A stretch of DNA of 64,000 bases, taken from Victivallaceae bacterium. GTDB lineage: Bacteria > Verrucomicrobiota > Lentisphaeria > Victivallales > Victivallaceae. Location: the NCBI GenBank assembly GCA_045534015.1, contig JAZSIZ010000060.1, positions 372 through 64,371 of the forward strand, in the 5' to 3' direction. The number at the start of each line of letters is the position of its first letter. The stretch's first letter is position 1. The notes under the pieces were generated by a model, which saw only the letters and a list, made by a program, of their open reading frames with translations, was not told the DNA's origin and made no database searches. Of this stretch, positions 7,094-60,303 are shown in pieces. A program made the translations under genes and the position numbers.

Positions 7094-7110
7094 ATTTTCC
7101 CTCTGGTATA

Positions 7111-8997: not shown

Positions 8998-9018
8998 TTT
9001 AGAATTATTCTCCTTAAA

Positions 9019-33081: not shown

Positions 33082-33118
33082 AAAAAAGAACGCAGCACCC
33101 ATCAGTGAGTGTTGCGTT
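33082..33118 (-). terminator. Rho-independent terminator closing the AraC-controlled operon
   Basis: 10-bp stem (one A-C mismatch) aacgcaacac / gugcugcguu followed by cuuuuuua on the minus strand. It lies about 20 nt after the stop at 33139. Confidence 0.6.
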
Positions 33119-33138
33119 TTTTGCAGGGGAATAGAATT

Positions 33139-33873
33139 TTATTTACTGAGTCTGTTTCCACCTTCGACCAAATAGTAAGAGGCGATAGGGGAACTGCCTC
33201 CGCAGTATACCGCATATTTTGCATCGGTTGCACTTGCCACAGGGGCAAGGATCTCATCCGGAGTGAAAGTTTGCACGTGTCCGGCAACAAACAGAAAATT
33301 TCCTTTTCCGGAGTGTTTGAAAAATGCACTGGCAAAATTGCCGGAGGTCGCGCCATACAAACAGGTGCGGTTGGCATGTTCCACTCCGCCGTTGTAAGAA
33401 TCGGCTGCCAGAACCGTGGTCTGCGGGGTGCCGTGGGTTTTTGTGTACAATGTGCCATAATCCTGAAGTTTGAATAAAGGCATAACTCCGTAATCTGCTA
33501 CTTTGTAACTGTAAGCATAATAAGCCCGCTTGCCGTCATTTTCCAAGCCGCAATGAAACACTTCCGGGGTAAGAGATTCCTGGTCATCCGCAGCTTTTAT
33601 TGCATCTATGGATGGTCCGCCAACATACGGGGAAAGCAAAGCGATGGCACTGTAATTGTATTCTTTTATGGTACCTTGTTTATGAGTAAAGTAACCATCA
33701 AAGTCCCCGGCATACATTTGGGCGGCGTTGCCGATCTGCTTCTGATTGTTGATACAGCTTGCCGTTCTGCCGCGCTCACGGGCGGAGTTGAGGGCGGGCA
33801 GCAAAATTGCCGCCAGAATGGCGATAATTGCAATAACTACAAGGAGTTCGATAAGGGTGAATGATTTTTTCAT
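33139..33873 (-). CDS. Prepilin-type N-terminal cleavage/methylation protein, H-X9-DG-like (pseudopilin-like)
   Basis: [36 protein letters not shown]. The C-terminal variant motif is [12 protein letters not shown]. Confidence 0.8.
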
Positions 33874-33892
33874 GGTAATAGATTCCTTTATA

Positions 33893-36775
33893 TCAATGTT
33901 TGCGGATTATCAGTGAACGGCTCCATACTTTATCTCCCTTGCCCATATTTCTTGCGAGGAAATAAAATTTTACGCTGACTGTGCGTGGATGCAGTTTTAT
34001 TGTGCCGGAATAGCTTTGCCAATCAGTTCCCGGTTTGATTTGCACCGGGGTGAAGCGGATTCCTTTACCATTGGCATCAAATTCGTAGAAGCCGACATCA
34101 AATCTTCCGGCAGTCAATCTTTCCGGTTTTATTTCTGTGGTAAAAGAGAGCGTGCGGCAATTTTTCAGATTTTTGACCGGATACCATACATAACGCCACT
34201 GATTATTCGGACCATCGGTAAGCTGTAGAAATGTGCTTCCATCCGCAACTTTGATAAAGTTTTCTGCTTTGGCACCCCATCCGGAAGGACGGACAAAATT
34301 TACTTCATCGGTATTTTCCCGGATGTTATCCAAAGTGTTAAAATAAGCTGTTGCCGCTTGGAAAACTTCATATTCATTTCTGCCGCCGATCCACAAAGTA
34401 TCATTGTCAACAAGTTTGATAAAACCATGCAGATGTGATGCCCCCGGAGAAAGTTTCGGGAAATCTCCGACCGTGCCGATCAGAATTTTTTTACCGGCAA
34501 CCGGAAGTTTATCAGGAGTGACAATGGGCAGTTCCAGACGCTGCATCGAGCCATCCATAAATCCGGGTTCCCGATTGCGCAATTGCCCGAAACGCTTGAT
34601 GCTGGCGGCGATAAATGGTCGGTAAACACTCATCATCAAGGCTGCATCATACGCTTTGCCGGATTGAGGAGCTACGACTACTGGTGTATTGGTGTCATCC
34701 ATGAATTCAGTAAGAACCGGATTAGAAGAATCAAAATCACATATCGGAAGATAGGTTAAAACAGCCTGACCATTGGTGAAATAGCCGGATGCCGGCCCGA
34801 AAAATCCACGCATATCTTCTTTACGGCAGGCAAACGTTGTTATGTTATTTCCAGATAAGGTGACTTGATTTCCGTTGCGTGAAGCGGTGAAGTTTTCCGG
34901 ATTACCGGAAAGTTTGACAGCCCGTAAAACGGCATAAGTGTGCGGTTCCAGAGTAATGGTAAAAATGGTTTCTCCGTTAATGATTTTCTGTTCCAGAGAG
35001 CCATTCTCCGGGATGAATCCATAAAAACCATCTCCAAGATAATGGTTTATTACCCGCAAGGTTGCGGTAGTTGCTGTACGTTCCGGATTGCTGATAGTGA
35101 TGATGGTCTGTTCTCCTTCTCCGAAACGCCCCACCCAAAATTTTCCGGCATCTTTGACTGCGGGGATCACTTGGTATCCGGCCCGTTGAATAGTTCTCAG
35201 AATTTCAATTTCGCCAATGGGGATCGCTCCCACATTCCAACTTTTGGGAACTGCACCGATTTCAAGACATTTGAAATGGAGCAGTTTGGCTTGAGCGGCA
35301 GCGATTGCTGTGCGTTGCGATGCCGGTATGCGATACCATTTGATTGCAGTATTGGCTGTGTATGGTACGACACCCCAAAAGACGATCGGCTTTTTGCCGG
35401 CAGATAACCGCAACGGCAGAACCATATCAATATTCAACTCCGGAGAACCTTCCATCATGATAGCATCTGCATGGAATACAGTGAAAGGAGAAAATTCTGA
35501 AAGTGCCATATTAAATATACACCCCATTGCCTTGCCGTTACGGGTAAGAGTATGAATATACTCGGCAAACGGTATCGGCACAATTGTGTCAGAGGTGTAT
35601 ATATTGTTGTTATCATCAAATGTTCTGCCTCTGCCGTAAGCAAGTTGTGATGGTGTGTTGAATACACTGGTGCTGTTGGCCATATCAAAGGCAAAACCGC
35701 TGACCTCATAATTTTCCACAATCAGCCGCAGTTGTTCTTTCAGATAATCGAATATCGGTGAACCGGGAGCAAAGACACTTTTGGTTTTTCCTCTGTTTGT
35801 CGGAATACTCGGCAGTCCACTGGTACCTTGTACTGCTTCAGGATAGTTATTGGCCAAATTTTGATGGATATCACGTACAAGGATATAGAAAAACATTGCA
35901 GTATTTATGTTTCCATAACGCATTTCATCCCGGACAAAAGCATCAAAAATATCGCGGGTCACCCATGACGTATCTCTGACATCTTTGTAACGGCGTACCG
36001 GATTGGTATCACCCTGCCATCCGGCTCCGACTGCGTACCAGTTTCCGGATTCATACCATGGAGTATAGGTCCACTCCCAATCCATTCCATACTGTCTGGC
36101 ACTGTGGGTCTGAAAAAGTCTGGTCATGTGCGACGAGCAGTGATCTCCGCCGACACCGTAGATTCTAGGATCAATATTTTCGATTGGAGAAAAATATTGA
36201 GGGAATGCCCGGTAATAAGCATCAACTGCATTTCTCCAGCCGAAATCAGGAGTAAATGGTGCACTCAAAACAGTAATTGTTTGCGGGTGATCTTTATCGA
36301 CAACGATCCGGGTGTCCAGATCGATTGCACTGTCGGAATATTGCCGGTAAAGTGTGCTTAATTCTGAATCCGGAGAAAGAGATACCGCCCAACCGTTTTC
36401 ATTATTGTAAGCCGCAGCCATGGGGAATGTTTCAAGCAACAAATCCCGGCAAATCGGCGTATCGGTGATTTGGTGTTCAGTGTTGCCATCCCAGAACATG
36501 GATGCTTGAAAAATCAATGTTTCCCGGAATTTTACTTTAAGTAAACGGTGAGAGGATCCGGAATCACTGAATGTAAACTTCCAACCGGATAGTGAGCCGT
36601 ATTTGACCGCTTCAATTTTTACAGACAATGACCCATTTTGCCAAGTACCGTCGGCAACCGATTGTATAGGGAAAAGTTCTTTATTGTTTTGGGCATCGGT
36701 TATGGTCAGAAAACTTTGAGCCCGGAGGACTACTGAATAAAGCAGCAGTAATAAAATCGTGTAAAACTTATTCAT
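33893..36775 (-). CDS. Large secreted protein of unknown family (possible TIM-barrel glycan-active core plus C-terminal CBM-like jelly roll)
   Basis: Signal [21 protein letters not shown]. There are no catalytic motifs I recognise. The C-terminal ~140 aa resemble a CBM4_9-type sandwich. ATG at 36775 (RBS gagg) overlaps the upstream stop (AATGAATAA). Alternative starts are at 36787 and 36805. Confidence 0.55.
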
Positions 36776-37595
36776 TGGGGACCTCATAATTTTCTGTTTT
36801 TCCATCTGATAAGGTTAAAGTTAAAATATAGTCAACGCTTTGAGTGGGCAGAATGACTGTGAAATTCTGGCGGTCTGTTTTGCTTTGACGGAAATACTCC
36901 TGCCCATTTTTATCTTTGATAACGATTGATGACCAGTTATTGGTGTTGACAGTGATTTGCAGATTTGAAGCTGCCTGTCCAAAGTAGACATCGGTATAGT
37001 TTACCCATCCTTTATATCCACCGAAACATCCGCAGCGTATTGCATAAGTTTTGATTCCTTTGCCGGTCGGAGGGGTGAACTCCCGCGTATAAGTTGTCCA
37101 TGTATCGGCATTTACTCCGGAAACCAGATCAGGATCTATGAATTTATCCAGAATTGCTTTGGCAGATCGGCCTTGGTGGGGGTATGCGAGAATGAAAAAT
37201 GTTGTTTGACTTACCGGATAATGCCCTAATGGGCTACCGCCGTCATTGTATTCCGGACAACTTAACCATATATTGGCAAAAGTACGGTATGCTCTGATTT
37301 TTGCTCTGATGCAGTATCGCACCCCTTCTTGAACCTGAACCAGTTGAAGAAAATAACCGTATTTCTGTCCCGGTGATTCGATAACTATGCCGCCGATGTC
37401 ACTGCGGAATGTGAATGCTGCTTTTGAGCAATTATCAAAATACCAATGTTGCGGCATTCCTTGAGTATTTTTTATTGAAAAATCTGCATTTTTTAATAAA
37501 TTCGGAGCAAATATTCGTTCCATGGATATATTGGCTGCTCCGAGTGGTAGCATTATCGCCAGTAAAATCATTGATGCAAGCCGTTTCATTATCAT
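36768..37595 (-). CDS. Secreted CBM-like (galactose-binding/CBM4_9-type) protein with C-terminal beta-sandwich
   Basis: The ATG at 37595 has a strong AAGGAGG RBS. Signal MIMKRLASMILLAIMLPLGAA. NLLKNADFS...HWYF...VQVQEGVRYCIRAKI is a CBM-like pattern. The longer tracked ORF (to 37727) would overlap the AraC gene. Confidence 0.5.
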   Translation of the reverse strand: MIMKRLASMILLAIMLPLGAANISMERIFAPNLLKNADFSIKNTQGMPQHWYFDNCSKAAFTFRSDIGGIVIESPGQKYGYFLQLVQVQEGVRYCIRAKIRAYRTFANIWLSCPEYNDGGSPLGHYPVSQTTFFILAYPHQGRSAKAILDKFIDPDLVSGVNADTWTTYTREFTPPTGKGIKTYAIRCGCFGGYKGWVNYTDVYFGQAASNLQITVNTNNWSSIVIKDKNGQEYFRQSKTDRQNFTVILPTQSVDYILTLTLSDGKTENYEVPNE

Positions 37596-37621
37596 AAAGA
37601 CCTCCTTTGTTAATTGCAATA

Positions 37622-37650
37622 AATATACTACAAAAACAAGGATAAAAAAA
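37622..37650 (-). promoter_or_regulatory. Putative activator-dependent promoter (poor -35 TTTTTT, 17 nt, TATATT) of the CBM-like/970-aa/pseudopilin operon
   Basis: -10 tatatt is the reverse complement of 37622-37627. The -35 position is a T-run immediately flanked by the direct repeats at 37653-37689. Confidence 0.35.
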
Positions 37651-37652
37651 TA

Positions 37653-37689
37653 ACAAAAACGGCAATGTTCAGGACAAAATCGGCAAATG
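37653..37689 (-). promoter_or_regulatory. Tandem direct repeats with 21-nt period, CATTTGCCGATTTTGT / CATTGCCGTTTTTGT (candidate AraC-family binding sites)
   Basis: Plus-strand copies are acaaaaacggcaatg (37653-37667) and acaaaatcggcaaatg (37674-37689). The distal copy is identical over 16 nt to 38590-38605 in the AraC gene's own promoter. Confidence 0.5.
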
Positions 37690-37695
37690 TGTTTT

Positions 37696-38553
37696 TTAGT
37701 GCTGTTTCCAGTGGCGGGGCTGTTCATTCAGATATTTGCGGAAAAGTCTGGCAAAGTAACAGCTGTCTTTGAATCCTGCTTTTTCTGCTGCATCAGAAAC
37801 GGAACAACCGTTGCGGAGAAATTCCCGGGCAGCTTCCAATCGCAACAGCAACAAATATTGCAGGGGAGTTTTGCCCAGAGATTTTTTGAAAGTCCGGGTA
37901 AAGGTCGATTGAGACATGCTGGCTCTTTTTGCCAGTTGAGCGATATTAAGCTCGTATCGGTAATTTTTCAACATATAATTTATCGTATCCTGAAACTTTT
38001 CCGGCAGCGGCAGGGGACGGGATTGGACATCCGGCGAATAGTGAGCCAGCAGCAGAGGTATGACCTGTAAAAACGCTCCGTATGCTGCCAGCAAAGCTCC
38101 TGGTGTTCGCTCTTTTTGCAAATTGTAAGCTGACAAAAGAATGGTTTTTACCGTTTCCAGTACAGGTTGGGGCAATTCGAATTTCGGATAAAATTTATGT
38201 TGATGGCAAAACGCCGGATCGATCCCGAACAAAGTCACATACCCCGGATGGTGACAGATACTGCGCACGGGAATATTCAATTGCTCAAAGTGGAAGATGA
38301 TATTCATCAGCTCCACATTCTCTTCATTCCGGTAGCGGTGCAATCCTCCGGGCGGAATGACCAGTACATCGCCGGCGGAAATATTTTCTTCGCTGTAGTC
38401 GGTTTCGTAGGTGGCACTCCCGTTGAACATGATGGCGATTTCTGAAAATTCATGGGAATGAAATCCCAGATCACCACTGTACCCCGTATAATAAAGGTAT
38501 ACCGGCAATTGACCTTTTTGAAAAAATGTTGAATCTTTCAGTACTTTGCCCAT
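37696..38553 (-). CDS. AraC/XylS family transcriptional regulator (cupin sensor plus HTH)
   Basis: N-terminal cupin (HSHEFSEIAIMFNG...) and a C-terminal double HTH (IAQLAKRASMSQSTFTRTFKK...CSVSDAAEKAGFKDSCYFARLFRK). Confidence 0.85.
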   Translation of the reverse strand: MGKVLKDSTFFQKGQLPVYLYYTGYSGDLGFHSHEFSEIAIMFNGSATYETDYSEENISAGDVLVIPPGGLHRYRNEENVELMNIIFHFEQLNIPVRSICHHPGYVTLFGIDPAFCHQHKFYPKFELPQPVLETVKTILLSAYNLQKERTPGALLAAYGAFLQVIPLLLAHYSPDVQSRPLPLPEKFQDTINYMLKNYRYELNIAQLAKRASMSQSTFTRTFKKSLGKTPLQYLLLLRLEAAREFLRNGCSVSDAAEKAGFKDSCYFARLFRKYLNEQPRHWKQH

Positions 38554-38579
38554 TGCTATTTCCTCAATGCTGTTTTTCT

Positions 38580-38608
38580 ACTATACTGCACAAAATCGGC
38601 AAATGCAA
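38580..38608 (-). promoter_or_regulatory. Putative AraC gene promoter (TTGCAT, 17 nt, TATAGT) overlapped by the 16-nt repeat
   Basis: The reverse complement reads ttgcat ttgccgattttgtgcag tatagt. The motif catttgccgattttgt (38590-38605) spans the -35 box and spacer. Confidence 0.45.
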
Positions 38609-49451: not shown

Positions 49452-51896
49452 TTACTGTTTCTGATAACGGATTATCCGTGCGGTGCGCGGCTGTGCCAAC
49501 CGCAAGGTCAAACCTTTTTCCAGAAGTTCCCGCCCGGTTATTTTCAGCGGGGCAAAGGTGTTGTCCATATCCCACACTTTGTATGAAACTTCCGGATCAA
49601 GAGCTTTGAATTTGATCACGCTTTCAACGACCGGACTGTTTTCGGTGCGGAATACCAGCATCATGCCGTCACCGGTTTCCGGAGCATCATATTGAAAAGC
49701 TGTCCACAAAGCGACTGCTTTGCCCTGCGGTTCAAGCACCGGATAGAAGTCTTTGGTGAAAAAGTGCTGGATCTCTTTGTACTGGGCAAGCTGTTCATTC
49801 AGCCATTCGTAAGGATAACCATTGTCAACATCATTGGCAGCATTGTAAAGACAGCGCACTGCCATGGTACTGCTCATCACCGAGCGGAACAAATAGGTGT
49901 CCGGGGCAAAGCGTTTCTGCAGACCGGCACCGAATATCGGCCAGAAACGGGCAAGACCATTGATGTGGGTCAGCGAGTAATCTGCATCAAACTCCATTTC
50001 GCACATCATATCGCTGTATGCCAGAGGATAACTGTAACGGAGCAATTCAGGATCAAGCCGTCTGCCGCCGGAAGCACAGTTGTCGATTTTCAACTTGGGA
50101 TGTTTTTTGCGCAGCTCACGCCACAATTTATACAAGCCTGCCATAAATTTGATTTCCGTTATTCCGGTTCTGCCCGGCGGATCGGCTTTGCGCCAGTAGG
50201 GTAGCGGTTCAAAGTTGAAGTCCTCCCTGAACCAGTCGATTTGATTGCGCTCAATGATCGAAGAAAGTTTATTGAAACACCACTGCCATGCCTCCGGATG
50301 ACCGAGATTCAGCAGAGTTTCATATTCTCCGTCAAGGAAAATCAGATATTCCGGATGCTGTTTGGCGATATTGCGGTCTTTGATCACCCGTTCCGGTTCA
50401 AACCATACGAGAAAATCTTTGCCGTGCCGGTGGGCTGCGGCGGAAATGTTTTTCATTTCCTCCGGGAAATTTTCCGGATCAAAATCCCAGTCCCCCACAT
50501 TTTTCCGCCAGGTGTCAGTTGCTTCATCTCCGTTGTCACTGTTTTCGGCGTACCATCCGGCATCGATCCAGAAAATGTCAAAAGGCACTTTCATTTTGAC
50601 CAGATGCTCCAGGCGGCGCAAATGTTCTTTTTCTCCCATACCGCCCCAGTGCATCGCTGAAATCGGCAGCTTGGGCATTTTGCCGTTGACCCGGGGCGTA
50701 AGATGTGACATTACAAATCTGCGCCACAAATTGATCGCCGCTTCATTGCCGCCGGCTGAATTGTACTGCAGAAAGGAAGAAGGTATTTCAACAGATTCTC
50801 CCGGAGTAAGATAAAGGTCAAGATACTCCATCCCGGCGACCAACTCTCTGCCGCTGGCAAAATTACGGACATCTGAAAACCATTGTCCGCTCCAGCCGAC
50901 CACCAGCCGCAAATTTTCTTCATCATTGCCGATATCCACCACCGGCAGGAAACTTTCTGATGATCTGCCGTTGATACAGCGGCTCTGCACGACGGCATTA
51001 TCCGGTAATTCATCCCGCACCGGAATAAAAGAGTTGCGGAAAGAATTTGCACCGCCGCCGGGAAGATGGAAGGAACCGAGCAGACGTTTTACATTCAGCG
51101 GCGTGAAGTGGGGTATCGTTTCCGGATAAAGGATCACCGAGGCTGAACGGACTTTTCGCAGCTGTTTGGAGTTTTCTTTTGTGGTATTGGTAAAGGTGGT
51201 GTGCCACTCCCAGACCGGAAAATCGTGAAACGCTTTGAGTTTCACCTCTGCGATCATGCCATCCATATTGCAGCTGTAAGTGTGCAAAGTGTGATCGGCA
51301 AATTTTTCTTCTGCATGGGTGATCCCCTTCCGGGTGAACCATTGCTGTGCCGGAATGCCGTCATATTCAAAATCAATGGGCATTTTATTCAGAATTCCCG
51401 GTTGACCTATTTTTATGATCCTGCCGTCAGCGGTGGTCGCTTCGATATTTGCCCAGTTGGCAAAGTGGTTGGATAATTTTCCTTCAATGTCGACATGCAG
51501 TTCCAGTGAATCCAGATGGGGCAGATCAAGGTCAAAAATGTGGACATCATCGACGGTCAGCGGTGCAGAGGCGGCAAGTTCTTTGCCGTTGCCGTGGATC
51601 GAAAAACGCATGGGACAAACATAACGTTTGCTGTTGCGGGTGTAACGGCAGTCTTCCATGCCCGCCACTGCCCGGATGTGGACGACCGGATGGGAGAAGG
51701 CAACTTTTATCACACTGGCGGCGTGAGTACCAAAGCCGTATTCATACTCTTTGCCGGCGATTTTCAGCGGAGTGCCGAAGATACCTTTCCCGTGTATCAA
51801 TTCCCGGTTGCCCTGATGGTAAGCAGTGACTGCAGCATAAGGCTGGTGCAGCATCCCCGCACCGGCAGACATCTGCCGGATATTATTATCCATCAT
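49452..51896 (-). CDS. NPCBM-domain plus GH36-like alpha-galactosidase
   Basis: The N-terminal ~130 aa are NPCBM-like (LKIAGKEYEYGFGTHAASVIKV...MRFSIHGNGKELA...LELHVD). The catalytic part has FWIDAGWY and KIDNCASGGRRLD. ATG at 51896 overlaps the upstream stop (ATGA). Confidence 0.6.
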   Translation of the reverse strand: MMDNNIRQMSAGAGMLHQPYAAVTAYHQGNRELIHGKGIFGTPLKIAGKEYEYGFGTHAASVIKVAFSHPVVHIRAVAGMEDCRYTRNSKRYVCPMRFSIHGNGKELAASAPLTVDDVHIFDLDLPHLDSLELHVDIEGKLSNHFANWANIEATTADGRIIKIGQPGILNKMPIDFEYDGIPAQQWFTRKGITHAEEKFADHTLHTYSCNMDGMIAEVKLKAFHDFPVWEWHTTFTNTTKENSKQLRKVRSASVILYPETIPHFTPLNVKRLLGSFHLPGGGANSFRNSFIPVRDELPDNAVVQSRCINGRSSESFLPVVDIGNDEENLRLVVGWSGQWFSDVRNFASGRELVAGMEYLDLYLTPGESVEIPSSFLQYNSAGGNEAAINLWRRFVMSHLTPRVNGKMPKLPISAMHWGGMGEKEHLRRLEHLVKMKVPFDIFWIDAGWYAENSDNGDEATDTWRKNVGDWDFDPENFPEEMKNISAAAHRHGKDFLVWFEPERVIKDRNIAKQHPEYLIFLDGEYETLLNLGHPEAWQWCFNKLSSIIERNQIDWFREDFNFEPLPYWRKADPPGRTGITEIKFMAGLYKLWRELRKKHPKLKIDNCASGGRRLDPELLRYSYPLAYSDMMCEMEFDADYSLTHINGLARFWPIFGAGLQKRFAPDTYLFRSVMSSTMAVRCLYNAANDVDNGYPYEWLNEQLAQYKEIQHFFTKDFYPVLEPQGKAVALWTAFQYDAPETGDGMMLVFRTENSPVVESVIKFKALDPEVSYKVWDMDNTFAPLKITGRELLEKGLTLRLAQPRTARIIRYQKQ

Positions 51897-54800
51897 TTGC
51901 TCAACTCCTTTTTTTTTACATTTTCCCCGGCTGAATTTTTTGCCGGAGTTGTTTTTGCTTCCCAGATGATATTTTTGATCTCCGTTTGGTGGCTGCTTTC
52001 TCCGGCACTCCAGTTGACCAGTATTTGCAGCTGGATAAATTGCACTCCGGGCCACCATTTGCCTTTTTCCGGCACTAAAGAGCGACCGCTGACGGTAACC
52101 GTATAGACCTCTTCATCCTTAACTTCGGCATGGTGAAGATTGTAATATCCACCGCCTTTGCTTTGCCGGATAACAGTTCCGGCGGGCAGATCAACGGGGG
52201 AGGGGGAGTTCAATTCAATCACCCATTTGCCATCTTTGAAAGATATGGATCGGGCAAAAGTTTTCAGCGTAGTGCGATTGGGCAAGTCAGATAAATCATA
52301 CTTGGCGTTGACGTGAATTTCTCCACGGTTTTTCAAATCCCATTTTTCCGCATTTTTTACCGTCAGAAATTTATCTCCTTTTTTCAGCGGCATTATCAGT
52401 TCTGTTTCACTTCCGGCAACCGCATTTACGGCATTGGCAGGGATCCACCGTTTGTTTTTATCCAGCGGATGAGCGCAAATATAGATGGTGGAGTTTTTAT
52501 TTCCGGCAAGCTGTTTTGCTGTCAGGGTTATGGTGTAAGTTTTTTCCGGATCGATGGGAATGATGTTTTTGCTGCGCATTTCAGCTTTGCCGGTCGAGAT
52601 GAATGCTCCATCGGCAAAGATCGTGTTGGATGCAAGTTTCCACGCCTGCGGAGTGTTGTAGATCAACGTTTCCGGGGCTTTGCCCTGCATCGCTTTTTCT
52701 CCGGGAGTAAGCGGTTTAAGATATTTTTCACCTTTTTTCAGCAGCTTGATCGCAGGATATGAGAGAACCGCATCCACCGGCATATCATATCTCTGCCAGA
52801 AAAGCGTCTGCCGGTTGTTTTTGGTGATGAAATAGTAACGCAGCATATTCAGGCGGATGCTTTCCGGAGTTTTATCATATCCCAGAAGTGAAAACGGTAT
52901 TGTCACCATCATGCTCCAGCCGTTGGCATTATATTTGATCGGGACATCAAAAAATCCTTCCCAGCTGCCGTCTTTTTCCAGCTTGTCCATGATTACCCCT
53001 TTGGCATTGACCATCAGCTGAATACGTTTGTTTTGAGCATTGCCGATGAGAAATTCCATCATATTGCCGCCGGTCCACGTATCTCTTTTTGCCGACGGGG
53101 CAAAAACTTTGTCGCCGGGAACGCTGTCAAAACATCTTACACCCACATAAAGATTCTGGTCATCGTGAAGCATTCTCACTTCTGTTCTGACCTTGGCAGT
53201 GCCGGAAATATAAGGGGTGAAAACATCGTTCAACTCCGTGTCTTTCCACGCTCCGGTTTTGAAATCCGGATCAAATTCCGGAGTTTTTTCACAATATGCC
53301 GCCTGAAGTTTGGCAGTTTCACATTTGATCATCCGTTCAAATGAGGCAGTGAGGCGAGCCAGCATGATTCTGGCATTGGGGTGCATTTTCTTGGTGGCGG
53401 CTTTCTGCAGTAAAGTACGCAGTTTATTTTCCAGACCTGGATCATAGATCACCGCTTTTGCCCATGAACCGTAAGGACTTTCGTGCCAGTTGGAAACTCC
53501 CGGACTTTTCTTCCATGCGTTCTCAAGAATGGCGTAATATTCGCTGATTTCTTTTGCGGCATCACCATAGACCCGCTGGAAAAATATCTGGCGGTAATAT
53601 TCCACCCCCTTATACGGATCCCATGAAGCATTGCACAAAACCCAGAAGTAAGGCATATTCTGATCCCAGATATGGGGGCCTTGAGAATGCACAAAGCTTC
53701 TGCCGTTTGAATCATTGATCATCTCTGACATGGTGCGTCTTACATTATATTTTGAGTTGACAAACTGCCAGTCGGCAATGGCTATGGCATCCATGGGGCG
53801 GGGGAATTCAGCGACCAGACCGTAGTATTCCCGCCAGCACAGATCACTCCCGGTTTTGCTCCAATTCAGGAACTTATCAAATGATTCTTTATTTTTTGGA
53901 TGGGTGATCGGATATTTTGAATCCCGGAAGATCGGGGCGAAATTGACCTGGATTATCGGGTGGACATCACATGACGGAGCCGCCTCCGTCTGATAATAGG
54001 CATTGGTTTTGATTTTTTTATCCGGATAACGTTTGTGCAGTTCCGCCGCGATCCGGTTGAGCCACATGAAAAATTGTGTGGAGCGGTAATTTTTATCTTT
54101 GATGGTAATGACTTTGCCATTGGCAAGTTTTATCGGGGCGGTACAGCCGGGGCATTCACAGGAATCAAAAGTATCTTCCAAAACCACACCGAAAACATCA
54201 TAATCTTTTTTGTGTTCTTCCACTTTTTCCAGAAAATTTTTCAGCCACTCCTTGAAACACTCTTCATTGGATAAACACAATCCGGTTTGCAAGTGCCCAT
54301 TTTCTGACGGACGTTTGCGTCTGCCGTTGATCAGGTTGTAAAATTCCGGGTGTTTGTCATAATACTTTTTTTCCGGCATGTAATAGCCCACGATATTATG
54401 ATGACCATTGAATATGAAAAATTGGTCAAAATGGTGGCGATTCAGCTTGCCGTTGACGGTGTTATAGGTGCTGAATGAAGAGTTGTTGCGTACTTGCCAC
54501 AATTCAGTGGCAGGAACAAATAGATTGCTGTATTGGAATCCCCGCTGGGTGAATTTAGGAACTGAAATGAAATCAGTTTCAGTAAATACCAATGTGGGAT
54601 TTTTCGTGAAAATCATACCGAATTTCACATCCGGTCTTGCCCAGATAATGTCGGTGTTGTTAAAAAGCAGAGCGTGTACGCCACGGATCAATCCGGTTCC
54701 CCGTGTAGCGGCAATGGTGATGGTCTTGCCTTTGGCGCGGATGGCGAAACCATCTGTATTACCGATAGCGGCAAGATCGTGTTCCATGCCGGCAGGATTC

Positions 54801-55039
54801 AGAGCAAGTACGATTTGGACACAGCCGTTTTTACCAGGCGGTACGATGGGCAGAGTCGCTCCGGAAATCTCTTTGATCCATAATTGGAGTTCTTCAGCTG
54901 CGAAATCAGCAGCATCACCGGCATTGGCAGGCAGCACGATAACAGCTTTTGCCTTGCCGTTGCTGGTGATCATGATGCCGTTTGCAAGGAGTGTTATGCC
55001 GGAAAACAGGCACAAAAACAGCACGCATAACTTTTTCAT
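51893..55039 (-). CDS. DUF4838-like secreted protein with CBM9-like module and a C-terminal domain of unknown function
   Basis: Signal peptide, then an N-terminus typical of DUF4838 (KAKAVIVLPANAGDAADFAAEELQLWIKEISGA). A CBM9/DOMON-like segment follows (VRTEVRMLHDDQNLYVGVRCFD). The last ~250 aa are paralogous to the 259-aa ORF next door. Confidence 0.6.
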   Translation of the reverse strand: MKKLCVLFLCLFSGITLLANGIMITSNGKAKAVIVLPANAGDAADFAAEELQLWIKEISGATLPIVPPGKNGCVQIVLALNPAGMEHDLAAIGNTDGFAIRAKGKTITIAATRGTGLIRGVHALLFNNTDIIWARPDVKFGMIFTKNPTLVFTETDFISVPKFTQRGFQYSNLFVPATELWQVRNNSSFSTYNTVNGKLNRHHFDQFFIFNGHHNIVGYYMPEKKYYDKHPEFYNLINGRRKRPSENGHLQTGLCLSNEECFKEWLKNFLEKVEEHKKDYDVFGVVLEDTFDSCECPGCTAPIKLANGKVITIKDKNYRSTQFFMWLNRIAAELHKRYPDKKIKTNAYYQTEAAPSCDVHPIIQVNFAPIFRDSKYPITHPKNKESFDKFLNWSKTGSDLCWREYYGLVAEFPRPMDAIAIADWQFVNSKYNVRRTMSEMINDSNGRSFVHSQGPHIWDQNMPYFWVLCNASWDPYKGVEYYRQIFFQRVYGDAAKEISEYYAILENAWKKSPGVSNWHESPYGSWAKAVIYDPGLENKLRTLLQKAATKKMHPNARIMLARLTASFERMIKCETAKLQAAYCEKTPEFDPDFKTGAWKDTELNDVFTPYISGTAKVRTEVRMLHDDQNLYVGVRCFDSVPGDKVFAPSAKRDTWTGGNMMEFLIGNAQNKRIQLMVNAKGVIMDKLEKDGSWEGFFDVPIKYNANGWSMMVTIPFSLLGYDKTPESIRLNMLRYYFITKNNRQTLFWQRYDMPVDAVLSYPAIKLLKKGEKYLKPLTPGEKAMQGKAPETLIYNTPQAWKLASNTIFADGAFISTGKAEMRSKNIIPIDPEKTYTITLTAKQLAGNKNSTIYICAHPLDKNKRWIPANAVNAVAGSETELIMPLKKGDKFLTVKNAEKWDLKNRGEIHVNAKYDLSDLPNRTTLKTFARSISFKDGKWVIELNSPSPVDLPAGTVIRQSKGGGYYNLHHAEVKDEEVYTVTVSGRSLVPEKGKWWPGVQFIQLQILVNWSAGESSHQTEIKNIIWEAKTTPAKNSAGENVKKKELSK

Positions 55040-55060
55040 GGTTTTCTCCTGATATGTAAT

Positions 55061-55840
55061 TTATTCTTCGATAATGGAAATGTCTGTTATTTTCACCGTA
55101 TTGTCTTTGGCATCCTGATTCCAGTTGACCAGCAGTATCAGCTGAGTGTATTCCACGCCTTTCCACCATTTGCCAGCCTGGGGCGGAGCGGCATTGCCCT
55201 GAAGCGAGGCATTGAAGTTGTGGGTCGTGAAAATGTATTTTGCACCCACATGGAAGTATCCGCCGCTGTTTGCCTGACGGATGGTCAAACCGGCTGGCAG
55301 AGAAACTTTTACCGGTTTATCCAATTCAATTTTCCACACATTGCCATCCTGCTGGATTTTTACCGGATTGCTGTTGAGATTCAAAGCGTTGGGCAAATCA
55401 GACAAATCAGCTTTGGCATTGTAGTGGATCCCGCCTTTGTGAGAAAGTTTCCACTTTGAGGCATCTTTGATAAAGATCACTTTGTCGCCGGATTTTACCG
55501 GAGCAGTCAATTGTGTTTCTGTTCCGGTAACAGGGCTTACGGTATTGGCAGAAATCCAGCGGCGGCTGCCATCCAATGGATTCAACACCACATATACCAG
55601 CGATGGTTTGGTGCCGGAAGTTCGGGCGACCGTGACCTTGACGGTATATTTCTTTGCCGGATCGACGGGGAAGACTTTGCGGCAATTGAGCTGAGCCTTG
55701 CCGGTAACGGTGATCGCTCCATCGGCAAAGGTGACATTTTGCCGGGGATGCCAGTTCTTTGCATCCATATAGTCAAATTCAGCGGCATTGACCGTAAGGC
55801 ACACAGCGGCAAAGATCAGGGAAGAAAAAATTTTTTTCAT
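55061..55840 (-). CDS. Secreted protein consisting of a single domain of unknown function (paralogue of the DUF4838 protein C-terminus)
   Basis: Signal MKKIFSSLIFAAVCLTVNA. It aligns by eye over its whole mature length with residues ~790-1030 of the 1048-aa protein (FADGA..TGKA, P.DP.K.YT, PLD..RWI.AN, NAK.DLSDLPN, LPAG..IRQ..GGY, GKWW.GV...Q..ILVNW). Confidence 0.6.
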   Translation of the reverse strand: MKKIFSSLIFAAVCLTVNAAEFDYMDAKNWHPRQNVTFADGAITVTGKAQLNCRKVFPVDPAKKYTVKVTVARTSGTKPSLVYVVLNPLDGSRRWISANTVSPVTGTETQLTAPVKSGDKVIFIKDASKWKLSHKGGIHYNAKADLSDLPNALNLNSNPVKIQQDGNVWKIELDKPVKVSLPAGLTIRQANSGGYFHVGAKYIFTTHNFNASLQGNAAPPQAGKWWKGVEYTQLILLVNWNQDAKDNTVKITDISIIEE

Positions 55841-55861
55841 CTTGTTCAGCCTTTCTTAAAA

Positions 55862-56662
55862 TCAGGGTTTTGCCCATTCTGCCAGTTTGTGGGTGGTGTT
55901 TTCCTGATGCGGATTGAGGTATTTGTATCTGAAACTGCTGCTGATCGTGCCGGTATCATCGGCAATTTCAGAGATCGCCGCATCGGAAACGTGACCGCCG
56001 AGATGGATCATATTCATCCTTTCATTGTGGGTCGCGCGCAACTTGATGGTGTTATCATTGCCGTTGGCTTTGGGATAAACTTTATTGGTATAGCGGAAGA
56101 AATAAGGCTGGCTGGAGGTTGAACCCGGATGGATCTCTTTATTGGTGCCGTCAACCGCAAATGCCAGATCATTGCCATTGACAAAGCTGAGGAAATTGTT
56201 TACTTTGAATTGAGTATTGGAGTAACCGGAACTGCTCATATCGTGATAATAGCCGAATGCTCCGGTGTAATGGGTGTAGCTCATGGATGCCGCGATCTTG
56301 CCGCGGAACTCATTGGGATTGCTGTAAAGAGTCGTATCTACGGCTGAACCGCCGGGACAGGCAAGAAATTCACATGCACCGGTGATTTTGTAGATCTCTG
56401 AATACCAGGTCGCTTTGTCATCACCGTAACGGAGCAGGGTGCTCAAGGCATAACCATCGTAAGCATCAATGTAAAACTGATGCCCCAAACCGATTTGTTT
56501 AAGGTTGTTCTTGCAGCTGGCACTGCGTCCGCGCTCCCTTGCACTGTTGAGTGCCGGAAGCAGGATAGCCGCCAGAATAGCGATGATAGCGATCACGACC
56601 AGCAGCTCGATCAGGGTGAATGATTTTCTCGGAGAAGTTGAATCGGTGAAATACTTTTTCAT
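55862..56662 (-). CDS. Prepilin-type N-terminal cleavage/methylation protein, H-X9-DG-like (pseudopilin-like)
   Basis: [34 protein letters not shown]. The C-terminal variant is [19 protein letters not shown]. Confidence 0.8.
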
Positions 56663-56692
56663 GGTAGCACTCCTTTTTTTAGGTGGGTTGTT

Positions 56693-57637
56693 TTATTTTT
56701 GTTCACTTTCGAGATAGTCAAGATAACGGTCATAAAGGCCGTGGGCTCCGGCGTAGATGCTGTTGGGGCTCATAAAGTGGGAAAATTCAAAGGTCATGGC
56801 ATTTTTTATTCCTGCGGCTTCGGCGGCACGGAGTTTGTAAAGCATCTTTTCCCATTTTATCGGCAGGAAGCGGATCGGCATATCCCGGTCGAAACTTTCA
56901 CAGTTTGTCCAGCACTCCATTCCGAATTCTTCAATTATCCGGCGATTGATTTCCAGATATTTCTGCAATTCAAAAATATCCACATGACCATCCTGAAATG
57001 CCACAATATCCACCGCTCCGCGCAACTCGGAAAGGATGGTGCGCCACTCTTTTTCGTGAGCTTCCGGGGTGATGCTCGCATTGCCGGTGGCAGCTTCCGG
57101 ATTCCACTCGTTGCCCTCTTTGATGCCTTTGATAAATGGGGAGATCACTACCGGCAAGCCGCCGGAAAGTTCTTTGCAGTATTTGCCCAATCCGGCATAA
57201 AGACCGATGATATTTCCGGATTTAACACTGATTTCATGGCAGATGTACCATCCGGCAAAGGCTTTTCTGGAGCCGTATTTCTGCCACGCTTCAAGGGCGG
57301 TGCCTTTATTCAATTCGATCTCCTTTTCCCACATCCCGTTGGAAGAATAGTAGCGGCTGTGGTAAAGACCGAGGAAGAAACGCATATCATATTTTTCAGC
57401 CAGCCGGAGAAAGATATCCAGCAGATCGGTTTCCGGCATCGCTGTGCCGGCATTACGGTGCAGATATTCGCAGGGCCACGCTGTCCATCTTGCCAGACCG
57501 CTGCGGATCATGATCACGGTGTTTATACCGGCTGCTTTCATGGCGGCAAAATCGCGATCCCACTCTTTTTCTCCCCAATTCTGATGGGGAATATCCCAAC
57601 TTATCTCATCGATAAAAGTAGCTGTTATTTTAAGCAT
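56693..57637 (-). CDS. DUF4434-like TIM-barrel protein (putative glycoside hydrolase)
   Basis: TATFIDEISWDIPHQNWGEKEWDRDFAAMKAAGINTVIM is the characteristic DUF4434 N-terminus. No signal peptide is seen. Confidence 0.55.
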   Translation of the reverse strand: MLKITATFIDEISWDIPHQNWGEKEWDRDFAAMKAAGINTVIMIRSGLARWTAWPCEYLHRNAGTAMPETDLLDIFLRLAEKYDMRFFLGLYHSRYYSSNGMWEKEIELNKGTALEAWQKYGSRKAFAGWYICHEISVKSGNIIGLYAGLGKYCKELSGGLPVVISPFIKGIKEGNEWNPEAATGNASITPEAHEKEWRTILSELRGAVDIVAFQDGHVDIFELQKYLEINRRIIEEFGMECWTNCESFDRDMPIRFLPIKWEKMLYKLRAAEAAGIKNAMTFEFSHFMSPNSIYAGAHGLYDRYLDYLESEQK

Positions 57638-57669
57638 ATTAACATCCTTATGATATTGTTTGCAATTTT

Positions 57670-57697
57670 AATATATCCATCATGAGTAATGATTCAA
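57670..57697 (-). promoter_or_regulatory. Putative promoter (TTGAAT, 16 nt, TATATT) of the DUF4434-pseudopilin-DUF4838-GH36 operon
   Basis: The reverse complement reads ttgaat cattactcatgatgga tatatt. Confidence 0.45.
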
Positions 57698-57714
57698 ATG
57701 CTGTTGAAATTTTC

Positions 57715-57734
57715 TTGCGCACAGTTTGCGCACA
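57715..57734. promoter_or_regulatory. Two tandem TTGCGCACA motifs with 11-nt period, upstream of the -35 box (candidate regulator sites)
   Basis: ttgcgcaca occurs at 57715-57723 and 57726-57734. The 14-mer tttgcgcacaaaaa (57725-57738) recurs exactly at 60278-60291. Confidence 0.45.
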
Positions 57735-57745
57735 AAAATGATTCA

Positions 57746-60202
57746 TCACTTATTATAAGTTGTTTTCAGGTGATAAATCTTTATATCCTTTGCAATTTGC
57801 TCTGCCGAATATTCTTCTGCCGGGAAGAATATTATTTCCCGCATTTTTCCGGGCAGCAAAGTAAAATTGTTGTCAGAAAAAATCCCTTTGTACCCGGGGA
57901 GATCAAGCGCTGTAAAGAGTGCCGTACCGGATGCAGAAAGAGTGATGACAAATTCATTGCCCCGCCGGATGATTTCAGTTTTGATCTTTGTTTCCGGCAG
58001 AATCATATCTTTGAAAGGGGCAAAAAATACGCTGTTGCGGTGGTAGAATCTGCCGCCATCAGGAGTGGTGACCTCAAGATATATTTCCAGAAAATGTTCT
58101 TGGGGATCTATGGCAAATTTATGTTGACAATCTTTGATGATCTGCAAACATTGCCCTTGGGACAGATGGCGCGTATCGGTTCGTTTTTCCAGAAGTTCTC
58201 CGGAAATGTGCCTTTTTTCCACTGTGAGCATGGCTTGACACTCTTGGATAAGATCGCTGGTTATGTAAAGCGGGTAGTGGTTGTTTTCATCCTTATACAC
58301 CGCAGAAATCACCGGGGCATAGAAACGTTTGGCTTCATAATTGAGCAGTTTCCACTTGCCGCCGTATTCGATGCTTGACCATGATGCCACCGGCCAGTTG
58401 TCGTTGAATTGCCAGAAGATCGTCCCCATACAGCGGGGTCTCAAAGTGCGCCAGAACTCCACCCCGGTTTTGATTGCCAGAGCCTGCTGCACCTGGGAAA
58501 GATAGAGGAAGTTTTCCAACCCTTCCGGCTGACGGAAATATTTGGCGAACATGTCGATGATCGGCTGATTGCCCAGCCGGTGCTTCTGATGCCAGGAAAT
58601 CGCCGGAGAATGGATTTCCAGCTGATCATCAGGACAGAAAAGTTTTACGGTATCCAATGACGGAAACGATTGATAACCGAATTCCGAACAGAAACGGGGC
58701 TTGATCGAGTAATAAGCGGAAAATTCTTTGCCGCCATGCCAAACCTCCCAGTAGTGCATATCTCCGTGCCGGTCTTCATGCCAGTTGTCAGTGGTACTGC
58801 CGGGACCTCCGCAGGGTGAACTCGGCCAGAAAACCCTTTCCGGGTCAAGTGCAGCAGCTTTGGATGCCAGAAAATCATTGAGTCTTTTATACTGGATAAG
58901 CCACTGCTCTTTTTGTTCCGGTGTTCTGGTGAAGCATCCGCTGCACTCATTGTCGCCGCACCAGATTGCCAGCGAAGCGTGATGGCGCAAACGGCGTATC
59001 TGATACTCCAATTCTGAATCGACTCCGGCAAGGAATTCATCATCCGATGGATATTCGGAAACCGAGAACATCATATCCTGCCAGACCATCAATCCTTTTT
59101 TATCGCAAAGCTCATAGAAAATATCTTTTTCATAAAATCCGCCGCCCCATACCCGGATCATATTCATATTGGCAAGCCGGGCAGATTCCAGCAGATTTTC
59201 GTACCGTTCATCGGACATCCTGCCAGGCAGGGCATCACAGGGTATCCAGTTGGCACCTTTGGCAAAAATATCTTTGCCGTTCACCCGGAAAAAAAGCGAG
59301 GTTCCATACTCATCCGGCTGATGCACCGTCTCGATGGTGCGCAGACCGATCTGGCGGCAGAGTTTATCACCATCGGCGGCGGCATTCAGCTGGTAAAGTT
59401 CTGACTTACCCGCTCCATTGGGCCACCAGAGCCGGGGCGAGGGGACTGTAAAAGTGGTTTGCACCAGATTCATTCCCGGCTGCAATGAGACTGAAACGCT
59501 TTTACTTTCATTGTTAAATTCAAACGAGACACACTCTGTTGCCGGTTTTTCCGCATAAATTTCGGCAATCGCCGTAACTTCCGCCAGATCGGGCGAGTGC
59601 TTTTGCTCTGTTCTGATATTACGGATAACCAAATTATTGAAAGCAGAAAGCGTGATCGGAGCATACACCCCGTTGGCAGAAAGAAAAATCCCCCAATCCC
59701 AACCACCGGAACAGATCGGTTTGCGCACCTGATTGAGATCAGGGATCTTGCAGTAGCCGCATTGACGGAACTTCTGTCCCCGCTTTTCTGCAATTTTTTT
59801 TACCGCTTCATCTATCGATACAAAAGTGAGGCGGATATGGTTTTTGCCGGGACGCAGAAACCGTTTCACTTCCGTGTTATATGCCGCATAGAGATTGCTG
59901 CAGGAAACAACGTTATTGCCGTTGAGGGAAATTTCGCAAAAGGTATCGACCATAGACAGATCAAGAGAAATACATGCGTGATCCAGAAACTTCGCAGGCA
60001 AAGTAAATTCCCGTTCAAAGATCCAGCTTTCCAGACGGAAGTGTTGTATGATTTGTTCATTATCCGCCCAATATGGGTCAGGGCACAGCCCTGCATTTAT
60101 CAGTGCGCTGTAGTTATCCCCCGGCAGTTGAGCCGGAATATTCTGGTACTTGCCATTGGCTGTTGACAGTTGCCAAACGCCGTCAAGTGAAACTTTTTGC
60201 AT
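57746..60202 (-). CDS. Beta-mannosidase, glycoside hydrolase family 2
   Basis: MQKVSLDGVWQL...PGDNYSALINAGLCPDPYW, NMIRVWGGGFYE (acid/base region), WEVWHG and CSEFGYQS (nucleophile region). ATG at 60202 with RBS ggggga. The tracked ORF extends to 60310. Confidence 0.85.
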   Translation of the reverse strand: MQKVSLDGVWQLSTANGKYQNIPAQLPGDNYSALINAGLCPDPYWADNEQIIQHFRLESWIFEREFTLPAKFLDHACISLDLSMVDTFCEISLNGNNVVSCSNLYAAYNTEVKRFLRPGKNHIRLTFVSIDEAVKKIAEKRGQKFRQCGYCKIPDLNQVRKPICSGGWDWGIFLSANGVYAPITLSAFNNLVIRNIRTEQKHSPDLAEVTAIAEIYAEKPATECVSFEFNNESKSVSVSLQPGMNLVQTTFTVPSPRLWWPNGAGKSELYQLNAAADGDKLCRQIGLRTIETVHQPDEYGTSLFFRVNGKDIFAKGANWIPCDALPGRMSDERYENLLESARLANMNMIRVWGGGFYEKDIFYELCDKKGLMVWQDMMFSVSEYPSDDEFLAGVDSELEYQIRRLRHHASLAIWCGDNECSGCFTRTPEQKEQWLIQYKRLNDFLASKAAALDPERVFWPSSPCGGPGSTTDNWHEDRHGDMHYWEVWHGGKEFSAYYSIKPRFCSEFGYQSFPSLDTVKLFCPDDQLEIHSPAISWHQKHRLGNQPIIDMFAKYFRQPEGLENFLYLSQVQQALAIKTGVEFWRTLRPRCMGTIFWQFNDNWPVASWSSIEYGGKWKLLNYEAKRFYAPVISAVYKDENNHYPLYITSDLIQECQAMLTVEKRHISGELLEKRTDTRHLSQGQCLQIIKDCQHKFAIDPQEHFLEIYLEVTTPDGGRFYHRNSVFFAPFKDMILPETKIKTEIIRRGNEFVITLSASGTALFTALDLPGYKGIFSDNNFTLLPGKMREIIFFPAEEYSAEQIAKDIKIYHLKTTYNK

Positions 60203-60233
60203 TATTTTTCCCCCATTCTTTCTATGCTGATTA

Positions 60234-60261
60234 AATATAGCCGGAAATGGAGCTTTGACAA
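60234..60261 (-). promoter_or_regulatory. Putative GH2 promoter (TTGTCA, 16 nt, TATATT)
   Basis: The reverse complement reads ttgtca aagctccatttccggc tatatt. Confidence 0.45.
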
Positions 60262-60273
60262 CTGCTGACGGCA

Positions 60274-60293: not shown

Positions 60294-60303
60294 GACACAA
60301 AAC

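Follow-up and report, generated by a model that had tools for sequence, protein, structure and literature searches.

Complex glycans in guts and oceans are broken down by members of the Lentisphaerae, Planctomycetes and Verrucomicrobia, much of whose machinery is unannotated. Among described systems, the polysaccharide utilization loci (PULs) of Bacteroidota combine a regulator that responds to sugar with a glycosidase and a binding protein without catalytic function, all encoded and inherited together. In the glycoside hydrolase (GH) families GH27, GH31 and GH36 the catalytic pair is an Asp after barrel strand β4 and an acid after β6; in GH66 it is an Asp nucleophile on β4 and a Glu acid/base on β6. 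Here we describe a cassette of PUL-like logic, about 5.5 kb long, that holds a regulator of the AraC/XylS family, candidate operators, an accessory gene, a gene for a 960-aa enzyme-like protein and a pseudopilin gene. It lies in a stretch of 64,000 nucleotides (the window) from a Victivallaceae bacterium (contig JAZSIZ010000060.1 of assembly GCA_045534015.1, positions 372 to 64,371), and the positions given below are those of the window.

The cassette differs from a Bacteroidota PUL in having neither a SusC/SusD pair nor lipoprotein signals, in carrying a pseudopilin in place of the surface-anchored component, and in that its putative binding protein is a detached domain of the enzyme, to which it is fused elsewhere. 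We consider it probable that this AraC-regulated cassette encodes an undescribed family of retaining glycosidases with a fold of the GH36/GH31/GH66 type, together with a detached subunit resembling a carbohydrate-binding module (CBM) and a dedicated pseudopilin, novelty being judged against Pfam, NCBIfam and the PDB rather than dbCAN or CAZy. An earlier note on this DNA, made from the sequence alone, had read the locus as a glycosidase-like large protein of unassigned family with a CBM-like partner, an AraC regulator and a pseudopilin, and the analysis supports that interpretation as one of predicted roles.

The large protein and its detached partner

The unit comprises four intact genes on the minus strand, with an intrinsic terminator at its 3′ end. 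The gene for the 285-aa regulator (37696..38553) is followed, after a 100-nt spacer, by that for a 275-aa protein (36768..37595), which has the ribosome-binding site (RBS) AAGGAGG 7 nt upstream. The large-protein gene (33893..36775) comes next and is separated by a 19-nt gap from the gene for the 244-aa pseudopilin (33139..33873). For the large protein we favour the ATG at 36775, which lies inside AATGAATAA, overlaps the preceding stop by 8 nt and has GAGG 6 nt upstream; its 960-aa product begins with a predicted signal peptide. The longest open reading frame (ORF), which starts at 36805 and would give 970 aa, is less likely. The terminator (33082..33118, minus strand) has a stem at 33117..33089 and then the U-run CUUUUUUAUAU. 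A simple consensus scan missed it because the stem has an internal mismatch, and it was confirmed instead by RNA folding (dG −14.5 kcal/mol, z −3.26, 0 of 200 shuffles equally stable). Gene order, RBS, overlap, gap and terminator are all where the earlier note had put them.

Searches of the 960-aa protein gave nothing in Pfam (2025 copy), in NCBIfam (release 20 of 2026) or, with phmmer and hmmsearch, in the PDB sequences (2026 copy). A word-indexed search found 49 homologues, all annotated as hypothetical and all from metagenome-assembled genomes (MAGs) of Lentisphaerae/Victivallales; with the protein itself they form the 50-sequence alignment A1. A Pfam scan of these 50 at E ≤ 1 found zero catalytic GH domains and a single family of any kind, the accessory CBM_4_9, in five of them. 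Eight distant members likewise have only Laminin_G_3 and PEP-CTERM in Pfam, and no GH family. Run against 1.84 billion representatives, the A1 profile matched 615 proteins at E ≤ 1e-3 (235 of them at E ≤ 1e-30), and the family thus has 615 clusters or more at 50% identity, mostly without names; the only distant member with a named source is from Planctomycetota. Family tests by sequence gave the same result: the Melibiase hidden Markov model (HMM) of GH36 found nothing in the protein or its 49 homologues, the Glyco_hydro_31 HMM was silent, a nucleophile motif of the WxDMNE type is likewise absent, and neither Pfam nor NCBIfam holds a confident match to any established GH or polysaccharide lyase family. 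No second copy of the large protein was found in a search of the window.

Structure places the protein where sequence does not. An AlphaFold 2 (AF2) model built on A1 has a predicted local distance difference test score (pLDDT) of 91.4 and a predicted template-modelling (TM) score of 0.88. It consists of an N-terminal β-sandwich (residues 21–175), a (β/α)8 barrel (~180–545), a second β-sandwich (547–650), an α/β domain (~699–830) and a C-terminal jelly roll (840–960). The earlier note had seen that jelly roll, and had likened the central ~600 aa to a TIM-barrel glycosidase; the barrel is present, its extent being only ~365 aa with the sandwiches flanking it. Foldseek gave 198 PDB matches at E ≤ 1e-3, with probability 1.0 for the barrel and its two flanking β-sandwiches against GH36, GH101, GH31 and GH66. 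The top matches are the GH36 α-galactosidase 4fnr (1.7e-14) and the GH36 blood-group-A GalNAc-ase 9ayu, and the GH36 set of 4fnr, 9ayu, 8k1a, 6phu and 1zy9 spans E 1e-14 to 1e-10; other matches, from the GH66/GH31/GH101 group, include 5a56 (1.6e-13), 8iu8 (4e-11) and 3wem (4e-11). Structure-aligned identity with these matches is just 8–10%. The protein is thus a structural relative of the GH36, GH101, GH31 and GH66 enzymes outside the membership of any of these families that is detectable by sequence in Pfam, NCBIfam and the PDB (as distinct from dbCAN or CAZy), and the earlier statement that it has no recognisable catalytic family holds for sequence and fails for structure, where the fold class is recognisable.

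The residues conserved most strongly in the family point to an active site in the expected place. Strand positions were read from the DSSP string of the AF2 model, and in the model most of these residues fall at the C-terminal ends of strands β2–β7 or beside them: W235 is in β2, Y297 in β3 and N422 in β5, D437 and E442 bracket β6, and K462 and W467 bracket β7, with D437 and K462 just before their strands. Y297, D364, N422, D437, E442 and K462 are invariant in all 50 close sequences, W235 and W467 nearly so. In 126 distant representatives, D364 is conserved in 100%, D437, E442 and Y297 in 97% each, K462 in 96% and N422 in 95%, and the set as a whole, with R456 and W235, in 85–100%. Asp364 (codon 35684..35686, minus strand), in the motif SGFAFDMAN directly after β4, is the predicted catalytic nucleophile. 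Glu442 (35450..35452, minus strand), in HADAIMMEG directly after β6, is the predicted general acid/base, for which Asp437 (35465-35467, minus strand) is the alternative candidate.

With GH36, a clan GH-D family of α-galactosidases and α-N-acetylgalactosaminidases represented here by Geobacillus AgaA (4FNR), the Flavonifractor A-antigen GalNAc-ase (9AYU) and Thermotoga TmGalA, the large protein shares the sandwich–barrel–sandwich core (E 1.7e-14 to 1e-10). There is also a likeness in the β4 motif, FDMAN here against KWDMN (YIKWDMN) in the GH36 PDB chain 3mi6 and REDFN (WFREDFN) in the GH36 protein encoded in the window. As for the residues, invariant D364 and E442 follow β4 and β6 as placed in the model, but the first motif is F-x-F-D and not K-x-D, and the predicted acid/base is Glu where GH36 has Asp. 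The K-x-D nucleophile and SGGGRxD acid/base motifs of GH36 are both missing, and the protein goes beyond GH36 in its two additional C-terminal domains and its separately encoded CBM-like partner. The barrel-plus-sandwich architecture is also that of the GH66 dextranases and CITases, of the GH31 α-glycosidases and of the GH101 endo-α-N-acetylgalactosaminidases, whose domain complement differs and whose HMMs are silent; the predicted Asp/Glu pair on β4/β6 is the same as in GH66.

The 275-aa protein has a signal-peptide-like N-terminus, MIMKRLASMILLAIMLPLGA/AN. Its AF2 model (pLDDT 83.6) shows a β-jelly roll of the CBM4/16/61 type (residues ~22–207) and an Ig-like β-sandwich (~210–271). Foldseek matches it to 3k4z, the CBM4-Ig pair of Clostridium thermocellum CbhA (2.4e-7), and to 2zey (1.9e-6), 1gui (9e-6) and 2xom (4e-5), with target-normalised TM-scores of 0.65–0.71 for the single modules 2zey, 1gui and 2xom and of 0.36 for the two-domain 3k4z; the folds retrieved comprise CBM16, CBM61, CBM4, 4d0q and a hyaluronan-binding module. 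The order of jelly roll and Ig-like domain is that of CbhA, and the N-terminal NLLxNxxF...W motif is typical of CBM_4_9-type modules. Pfam CBM_4_9 itself scores 12.5 bits, below its cut-off of 25.9. We take the protein to be most likely carbohydrate-binding, which accords with the CBM-like, secreted protein proposed earlier.

Its tie to the enzyme is close. Informative contexts were counted as distinct orthologous loci (numbered L001 onwards) that include upstream sequence, and in all 16 of them the small gene lies immediately upstream of the enzyme gene, while enzyme identity ranges from 93% down to 31%. In ten loci compared, the window and nine orthologous ones, the stop of the small gene overlaps the enzyme start by 8, 4 or 1 nt; in L016 the two genes are 1 nt apart with no overlap. 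The recurrence of these overlaps across loci indicates that the genes are translationally coupled. In other family members the two proteins are a single chain: a profile of the small protein finds its homologue fused to the enzyme N-terminus in P0055 (E 2.8e-50), P0070 and P0141, and at the C-terminus in P0168, P0175 and P0152, the last from Planctomycetota. P0055 opens with a single signal peptide and a homologue of the small protein that, like the free proteins, ends in ...LENE; after a linker rich in Pro, Lys and Gln comes the enzyme, which lacks a signal peptide of its own. From synteny, stop/start coupling and fusions, the comparison of sequences makes the small protein a detached accessory module of the enzyme; that it is an unrelated neighbour is ruled out by the fusions and the unbroken synteny. 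Where CBM4/16/61 modules of the CbhA type sit in the enzyme chain, this one is free-standing and has its own signal peptide. One distant locus, L027, has in place of the small gene one that encodes another kind of small protein, lectin-like and of Laminin_G_3 type.

Some other members of the large-protein family deserve mention. Upstream of araC, in roughly positions 1–7700 of the closest relatives, L004, L005 and L006, are two distant paralogues of 1309 and 865 aa (22–24% identity), and these tandem paralogous cassettes come with another pilin and a 197-aa gene; the window has none of them there. The enzyme homologue of L014 (10001-12302) aligns as 10001-10441 and 10449-12302; the 7-nt gap between these parts is not a multiple of three, and by its sequence the gene is therefore frameshifted, as a pseudogene or through an assembly error. 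The rumen MAG that is the source of L014, RGIG8244, has two more paralogous cassettes, L010 and L013, both intact. The distant member P0130 (L026, 8001-11732) has a 388-aa N-terminal extension with a PEP-CTERM-like motif at residues 262–285; gene calls may have been merged here, or the protein may be anchored in an unusual way.

Regulator, exchanged tract and gene neighbourhoods

The regulator belongs to the AraC/XylS family and has a cupin-type domain for ligand binding at its N-terminus and a double helix-turn-helix (HTH) at its C-terminus. Its Pfam matches are HTH_18 (7.6e-22; 77.9 bits, cut-off 33.6), HTH_AraC (2.7e-16; 59.7 bits, cut-off 26.6) and AraC_binding (1.7e-8; 34.7 bits, cut-off 21.1). 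The best NCBIfam match is RhaS (NF010028), over the full length at 2.9e-24, though its 86 bits fall short of the cut-off, which is 288. With a score so far under the cut-off, L-rhamnose was set aside as the assigned ligand and stays a hint.

An AraC-type gene adjoins the cassette in at least nine distinct orthologous contexts, and it is divergent in most of them, so that araC very probably has its own promoter and the structural operon is small–large–pilin. The idea that the operon is AraC-controlled and begins with the AraC gene is therefore kept as to the regulator and altered as to its transcription, which is probably separate. Candidate operators were found ahead of both transcription units. 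The pattern TT[AG]CCG.?TTTTGT has five matches in the window, four of them ahead of araC or the small gene and all four on the strand of these genes. Upstream of araC are the candidate half-sites TTACCGTTTTGT (38632-38621, minus strand) and TTGCCGATTTTGT (38602-38590, minus strand); upstream of the 275-aa gene are TTGCCGATTTTGT again (37686-37674, minus strand) and TTGCCGTTTTTGT (37665-37653, minus strand). An exact 16-mer, CATTTGCCGATTTTGT, is common to both regions. The half-sites before the small gene are direct repeats at 21 bp start to start, a spacing typical of AraC-family activators; beyond them come a −10 element resembling TATATT and the RBS AAGGAGG. The intergenic region between araC and the small gene is nearly identical in L005 and L006. 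From these sequence features we infer that AraC controls the unit through the candidate half-sites.

Divergent from araC on the plus strand (38670-38993) is a 107-aa Cys-rich ORF for which Pfam has nothing at E ≤ 1e-4. Most of it lies inside the block of homology with L004–L006, which reaches about 38960, and L004 has a 106-aa gene at this position; to judge by the alignments, the ORF may belong to the conserved block.

Comparison with the closest relatives shows that the cassette genes are under purifying selection. Against the closest orthologue, araC, the small gene and the large gene have ratios of nonsynonymous to synonymous divergence (dN/dS) of 0.06, 0.28 and 0.19, respectively. Synonymous divergence itself is uneven, with dS 0.03 for the small gene, 0.21 for the whole enzyme gene (a mixture of tract and flank, as defined next), 1.9 for araC, and saturation for the pilin gene. 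Sliding identity and mismatch lists against two independent Victivallaceae MAGs (L005 and L006) delimited a tract at 34645..37687 (minus strand) of 98.8% nucleotide identity, which takes in the promoter and operator candidates, the small gene and, from its start, ~710 codons of the enzyme gene, that is, the N-terminal sandwich, the barrel and the second sandwich. Its flanks are 69–79% identical (araC 77%, the last ~250 enzyme codons 74%, the pilin gene 69%), and beyond about 38960 on one side and 33180 on the other homology with L005 and L006 is lost. At its 3′ end the tract breaks off where the model has a domain boundary, near residue 699. The pattern of identity suggests that binding module and catalytic core were recently exchanged as one unit by recombination or transfer; a chimeric assembly may be an alternative source of the tract.

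The genes around orthologous cassettes give a hint of substrate. A GH106 α-L-rhamnosidase is found downstream in four distinct contexts (L001-3/L011, L007, L012 and L013), with a weak, below-threshold GH106 in L020, and there is a GH78 in L023/L015 and a RhaM mutarotase in L024. A GH42 β-galactosidase is directly upstream in L009 and L019, and L004 has an L-fucose isomerase (FucI) with an SSF transporter. These neighbours and the RhaS-like regulator hint, weakly, at a rhamnose- and galactose-containing plant or host glycan as the most likely substrate, such as pectic rhamnogalacturonan or arabinogalactan; our confidence in this is low because the genomes are dense in carbohydrate-active enzymes (CAZymes).

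The pseudopilin and the rival readings

The pseudopilin has a class-III signal and N-methylation helix (MKKS|FTLIE, with Glu at +5), a globular domain specific to its lineage and, at the C-terminus, the motif H-X9-AG. It scores above cut-off with Pfam N_methyl (5.8e-7; 29.3 bits, cut-off 21.2), with TIGR02532 (22.8 bits, cut-off 16.3) and with DUF1559 (Pfam SBP_bac_10; 3.7e-8; 34.2 bits, cut-off 23.3), the last match covering profile positions 2–32 of 268 only. Its 37.1 bits against GspG (TIGR01710) are under the equivalog cut-off of 88.85, TIGR04294 is not listed at E ≤ 1, and PDB pilins align only to residues 5–65, the N-terminal helix. The protein resembles the DUF1559/H-X9-DG paralogues of the Planctomycetes–Verrucomicrobia–Chlamydiae (PVC) superphylum and GspG of the type II secretion system in its methylation helix, its DUF1559 start and its C-terminal H-X9-xG; it is unlike them in having Ser for Gly at −1, AG for DG and a cassette-specific globular domain, and in sitting in a CAZyme operon rather than one for secretion machinery. 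A pseudopilin had been expected here, and one is present; the label H-X9-DG fits it less well, its motif ending in AG.

The window has three DUF1559 pilin genes, each in a separate CAZyme operon. The second operon (10835..4535, minus strand) encodes LacI, a pilin, a β-helix protein and a GH78 rhamnosidase; the third (60310..49452, minus strand) encodes GH2, DUF4434, a pilin, a 259-aa protein of unassigned family, DUF4838 and a GH36 with NPCBM. The cassette is the only one of the three loci without an enzyme recognisable by sequence, as had been noted before, and a pilin inside a CAZyme operon looks like a general design of this genome.

We infer that the pilin is a dedicated partner of the enzyme pair, anchored in the membrane or carried in a fibre. 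Several results weigh against the reading of the cassette as a whole, and two of them concern the pilin. At position −1 before FTLIE (33862-33873) the canonical Gly is replaced by Ser, and by K, C, M or H in orthologues, and the Asp of H-X9-DG is replaced by Ala, as in the closest orthologue, L004. Cassette pilins with an intact H-X9-DG occur in L001, L007, L013, L020 and L027. The residues at −1 make cleavage by prepilin peptidase questionable, and with both replacements processing and function of the pilin are uncertain. The others concern the enzyme, its promoter and its surroundings. The TM-scores of the Foldseek matches to the enzyme model are moderate, at 0.35 with query normalisation and 0.45–0.53 with target normalisation. 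The catalytic residues are assigned by counting strands in the model and by conservation, and so are predictions of the model. In hhalign the family profile matched Escherichia coli YicI (GH31) with a probability of 0.15% and the genuine GH36 of the window with 0.4%; the sole PDB profile match is a non-significant one (E 0.09) of 30 residues, covering the β4 motif, to the GH31 α-galactosidase 8j53. A scan for σ70-type promoters was at chance level (14 found, 12.2 expected). The enzymes next to orthologous cassettes are heterogeneous, GH92, DUF4838 and GH123_N being found in still other loci of these CAZyme-dense genomes, and the cassette in the window has no neighbouring rhamnosidase or transporter.

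The alternative that survives best, although we think it rather unlikely, is that the pilin is not a functional partner, its position reflecting genome-wide interspersion of pilin genes or a generic need for secretion, so that the unit would be the small and large genes only. The deviating motifs, the presence of three such pilins in 64 kb in different CAZyme operons, and the extent of the exchanged tract, which leaves the pilin gene out, are all as this alternative would have them, and in L012, L017, L019 and L026 no pilin lies directly downstream. However, in 12 of the 15 informative contexts the gene after that of the enzyme encodes an orthologous pilin, where chance adjacency would be roughly 5% at ~1 pilin per 20 window genes. 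The cassette pilins are moreover orthologous over the globular domain (41–74% identity over >200 aa), whereas other pilins of the same genome share the helix only, the other two in the window agreeing with the cassette pilin just over the first ~60–70 residues. Even in the distant L027, with its different small lectin-like partner, a pilin still follows the enzyme gene.

It is quite unlikely, in our view, that the large protein belongs to an established recent CAZy family lacking both a Pfam or NCBIfam model and a solved structure, which would make the cassette routine. Many GH families have been created since about 2017 without a Pfam model, and the fold class is wholly conventional. Against this stand the absence of any catalytic Pfam match at E ≤ 1 among the 50 members, the silence of NCBIfam, and a search of the A1 profile against all PDB sequences that returned nothing significant. 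Source names are all 'hypothetical protein', and searches of the literature on new GH families related to GH36, GH101 and GH31, on DUF1559 and H-X9-DG, and on pseudopilins of Victivallales turned up no description of the family or the cassette.

We also give little credence to a barrel that is something other than a hydrolase, that is, a lyase, a phosphorylase, a transglycosylase, or a non-catalytic protein of glycan-binding or structural role on a GH36-like scaffold. There is precedent for other chemistry, in that GH31 includes α-glucan lyases and GH66, GH13 and GH70 include transferases; sequence comparison finds no motif identity with characterised hydrolases, and Foldseek shows a weak resemblance of the C-terminal part of the model to the carbohydrate-binding and flavodoxin-like modules of BcsB. 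But conservation of the β4 Asp and β6 Glu at 97–100% across hundreds of divergent sequences, together with that of aromatic residues and of Asn, Arg and Lys at or near strand ends, fits the active site of a glycosidase or transglycosidase and would be unneeded in a pure binder, the neighbours are exo-glycosidases, and the predicted export of the protein makes nucleotide- or phosphate-dependent chemistry unlikely. Pseudogenisation is ruled out by intact ORFs, conserved predicted catalytic residues and dN/dS of 0.06–0.28.

If the retaining-glycosidase cassette is taken as the working model, it would act as a self-contained glycan-utilisation unit of gut Victivallaceae (Lentisphaerae). An AraC/XylS-type sugar sensor would bind direct-repeat TTGCCG(N)TTTTGT half-sites ahead of its own gene and of the three-gene operon. 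The operon would supply a Sec-exported protein of CBM4/16-like jelly roll and Ig domain, the coupled, Sec-exported five-domain enzyme, and the pseudopilin of DUF1559/H-X9-DG type. The enzyme would carry out retaining hydrolysis or transglycosylation by double displacement, with Asp364 as nucleophile and Glu442 as acid/base, and the bond cleaved would most likely be an α-linkage, because nearly all structural relatives are α-specific. The small protein, as the CBM of the enzyme on a separate chain, would probably dock on the enzyme or hold the polymer for it. The pseudopilin, anchored in the membrane or incorporated in a fibre, would help to export or retain the enzyme pair, or would capture substrate or product.

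The surrounding window and the wider family

The genes on either side of the cassette in the window are housekeeping ones, for topoisomerase subunits, a major facilitator superfamily transporter, a permease, a radical-SAM protein and a uvrB-like protein. Just past the terminator (32349-32969, minus strand) a gene with a separate RBS, AAGGAGA, encodes a 206-aa protein whose N-terminus resembles a signal peptide; neither Pfam nor NCBIfam has a family for it, and in relatives it shows no synteny with the cassette. Further on, at 30313-32178 (plus strand), a 621-aa protein with a signal peptide and a strongly acidic, Ser/Glu/Asp-rich C-terminal tail is also without a Pfam family. A small CAZyme cluster at 15974-17599 and 14861-15874 (both minus strand) has a short, 541-aa Melibiase-type (GH36-like) protein beside a weak GH43-like protein and an SGNH esterase.

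Chemistry and fold in this system are conventional; the family is large and unannotated. It is a candidate new GH family of at least 615 clusters, without a model in Pfam or NCBIfam, for which predicted catalytic residues, subunit, regulator and operator candidates are available in one 5.5-kb unit. The conserved coupling and the independent fusions at both the N- and the C-terminus make the small protein a clean example of a detached module. Through its linkage to the enzyme, the pseudopilin offers an entry point to the role of DUF1559/H-X9-DG proteins, whose families in the PVC superphylum are very large.

A more far-reaching reading, which we regard as unlikely, is that the cassette is a PVC-specific module of three components. 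Its enzyme would be the founder of a new retaining-glycosidase family of new specificity, acting possibly on α-linked residues adjacent to a rhamnose or galactose of pectin-type glycans, it would work as a two-chain enzyme with a detached CBM, and the pilin would export or tether it or feed it substrate. If this were true, pilin-like fibres or anchors would be the PVC counterpart of Sus-type surface machinery, and the expanded DUF1559/H-X9-DG paralogue families would have a first function.

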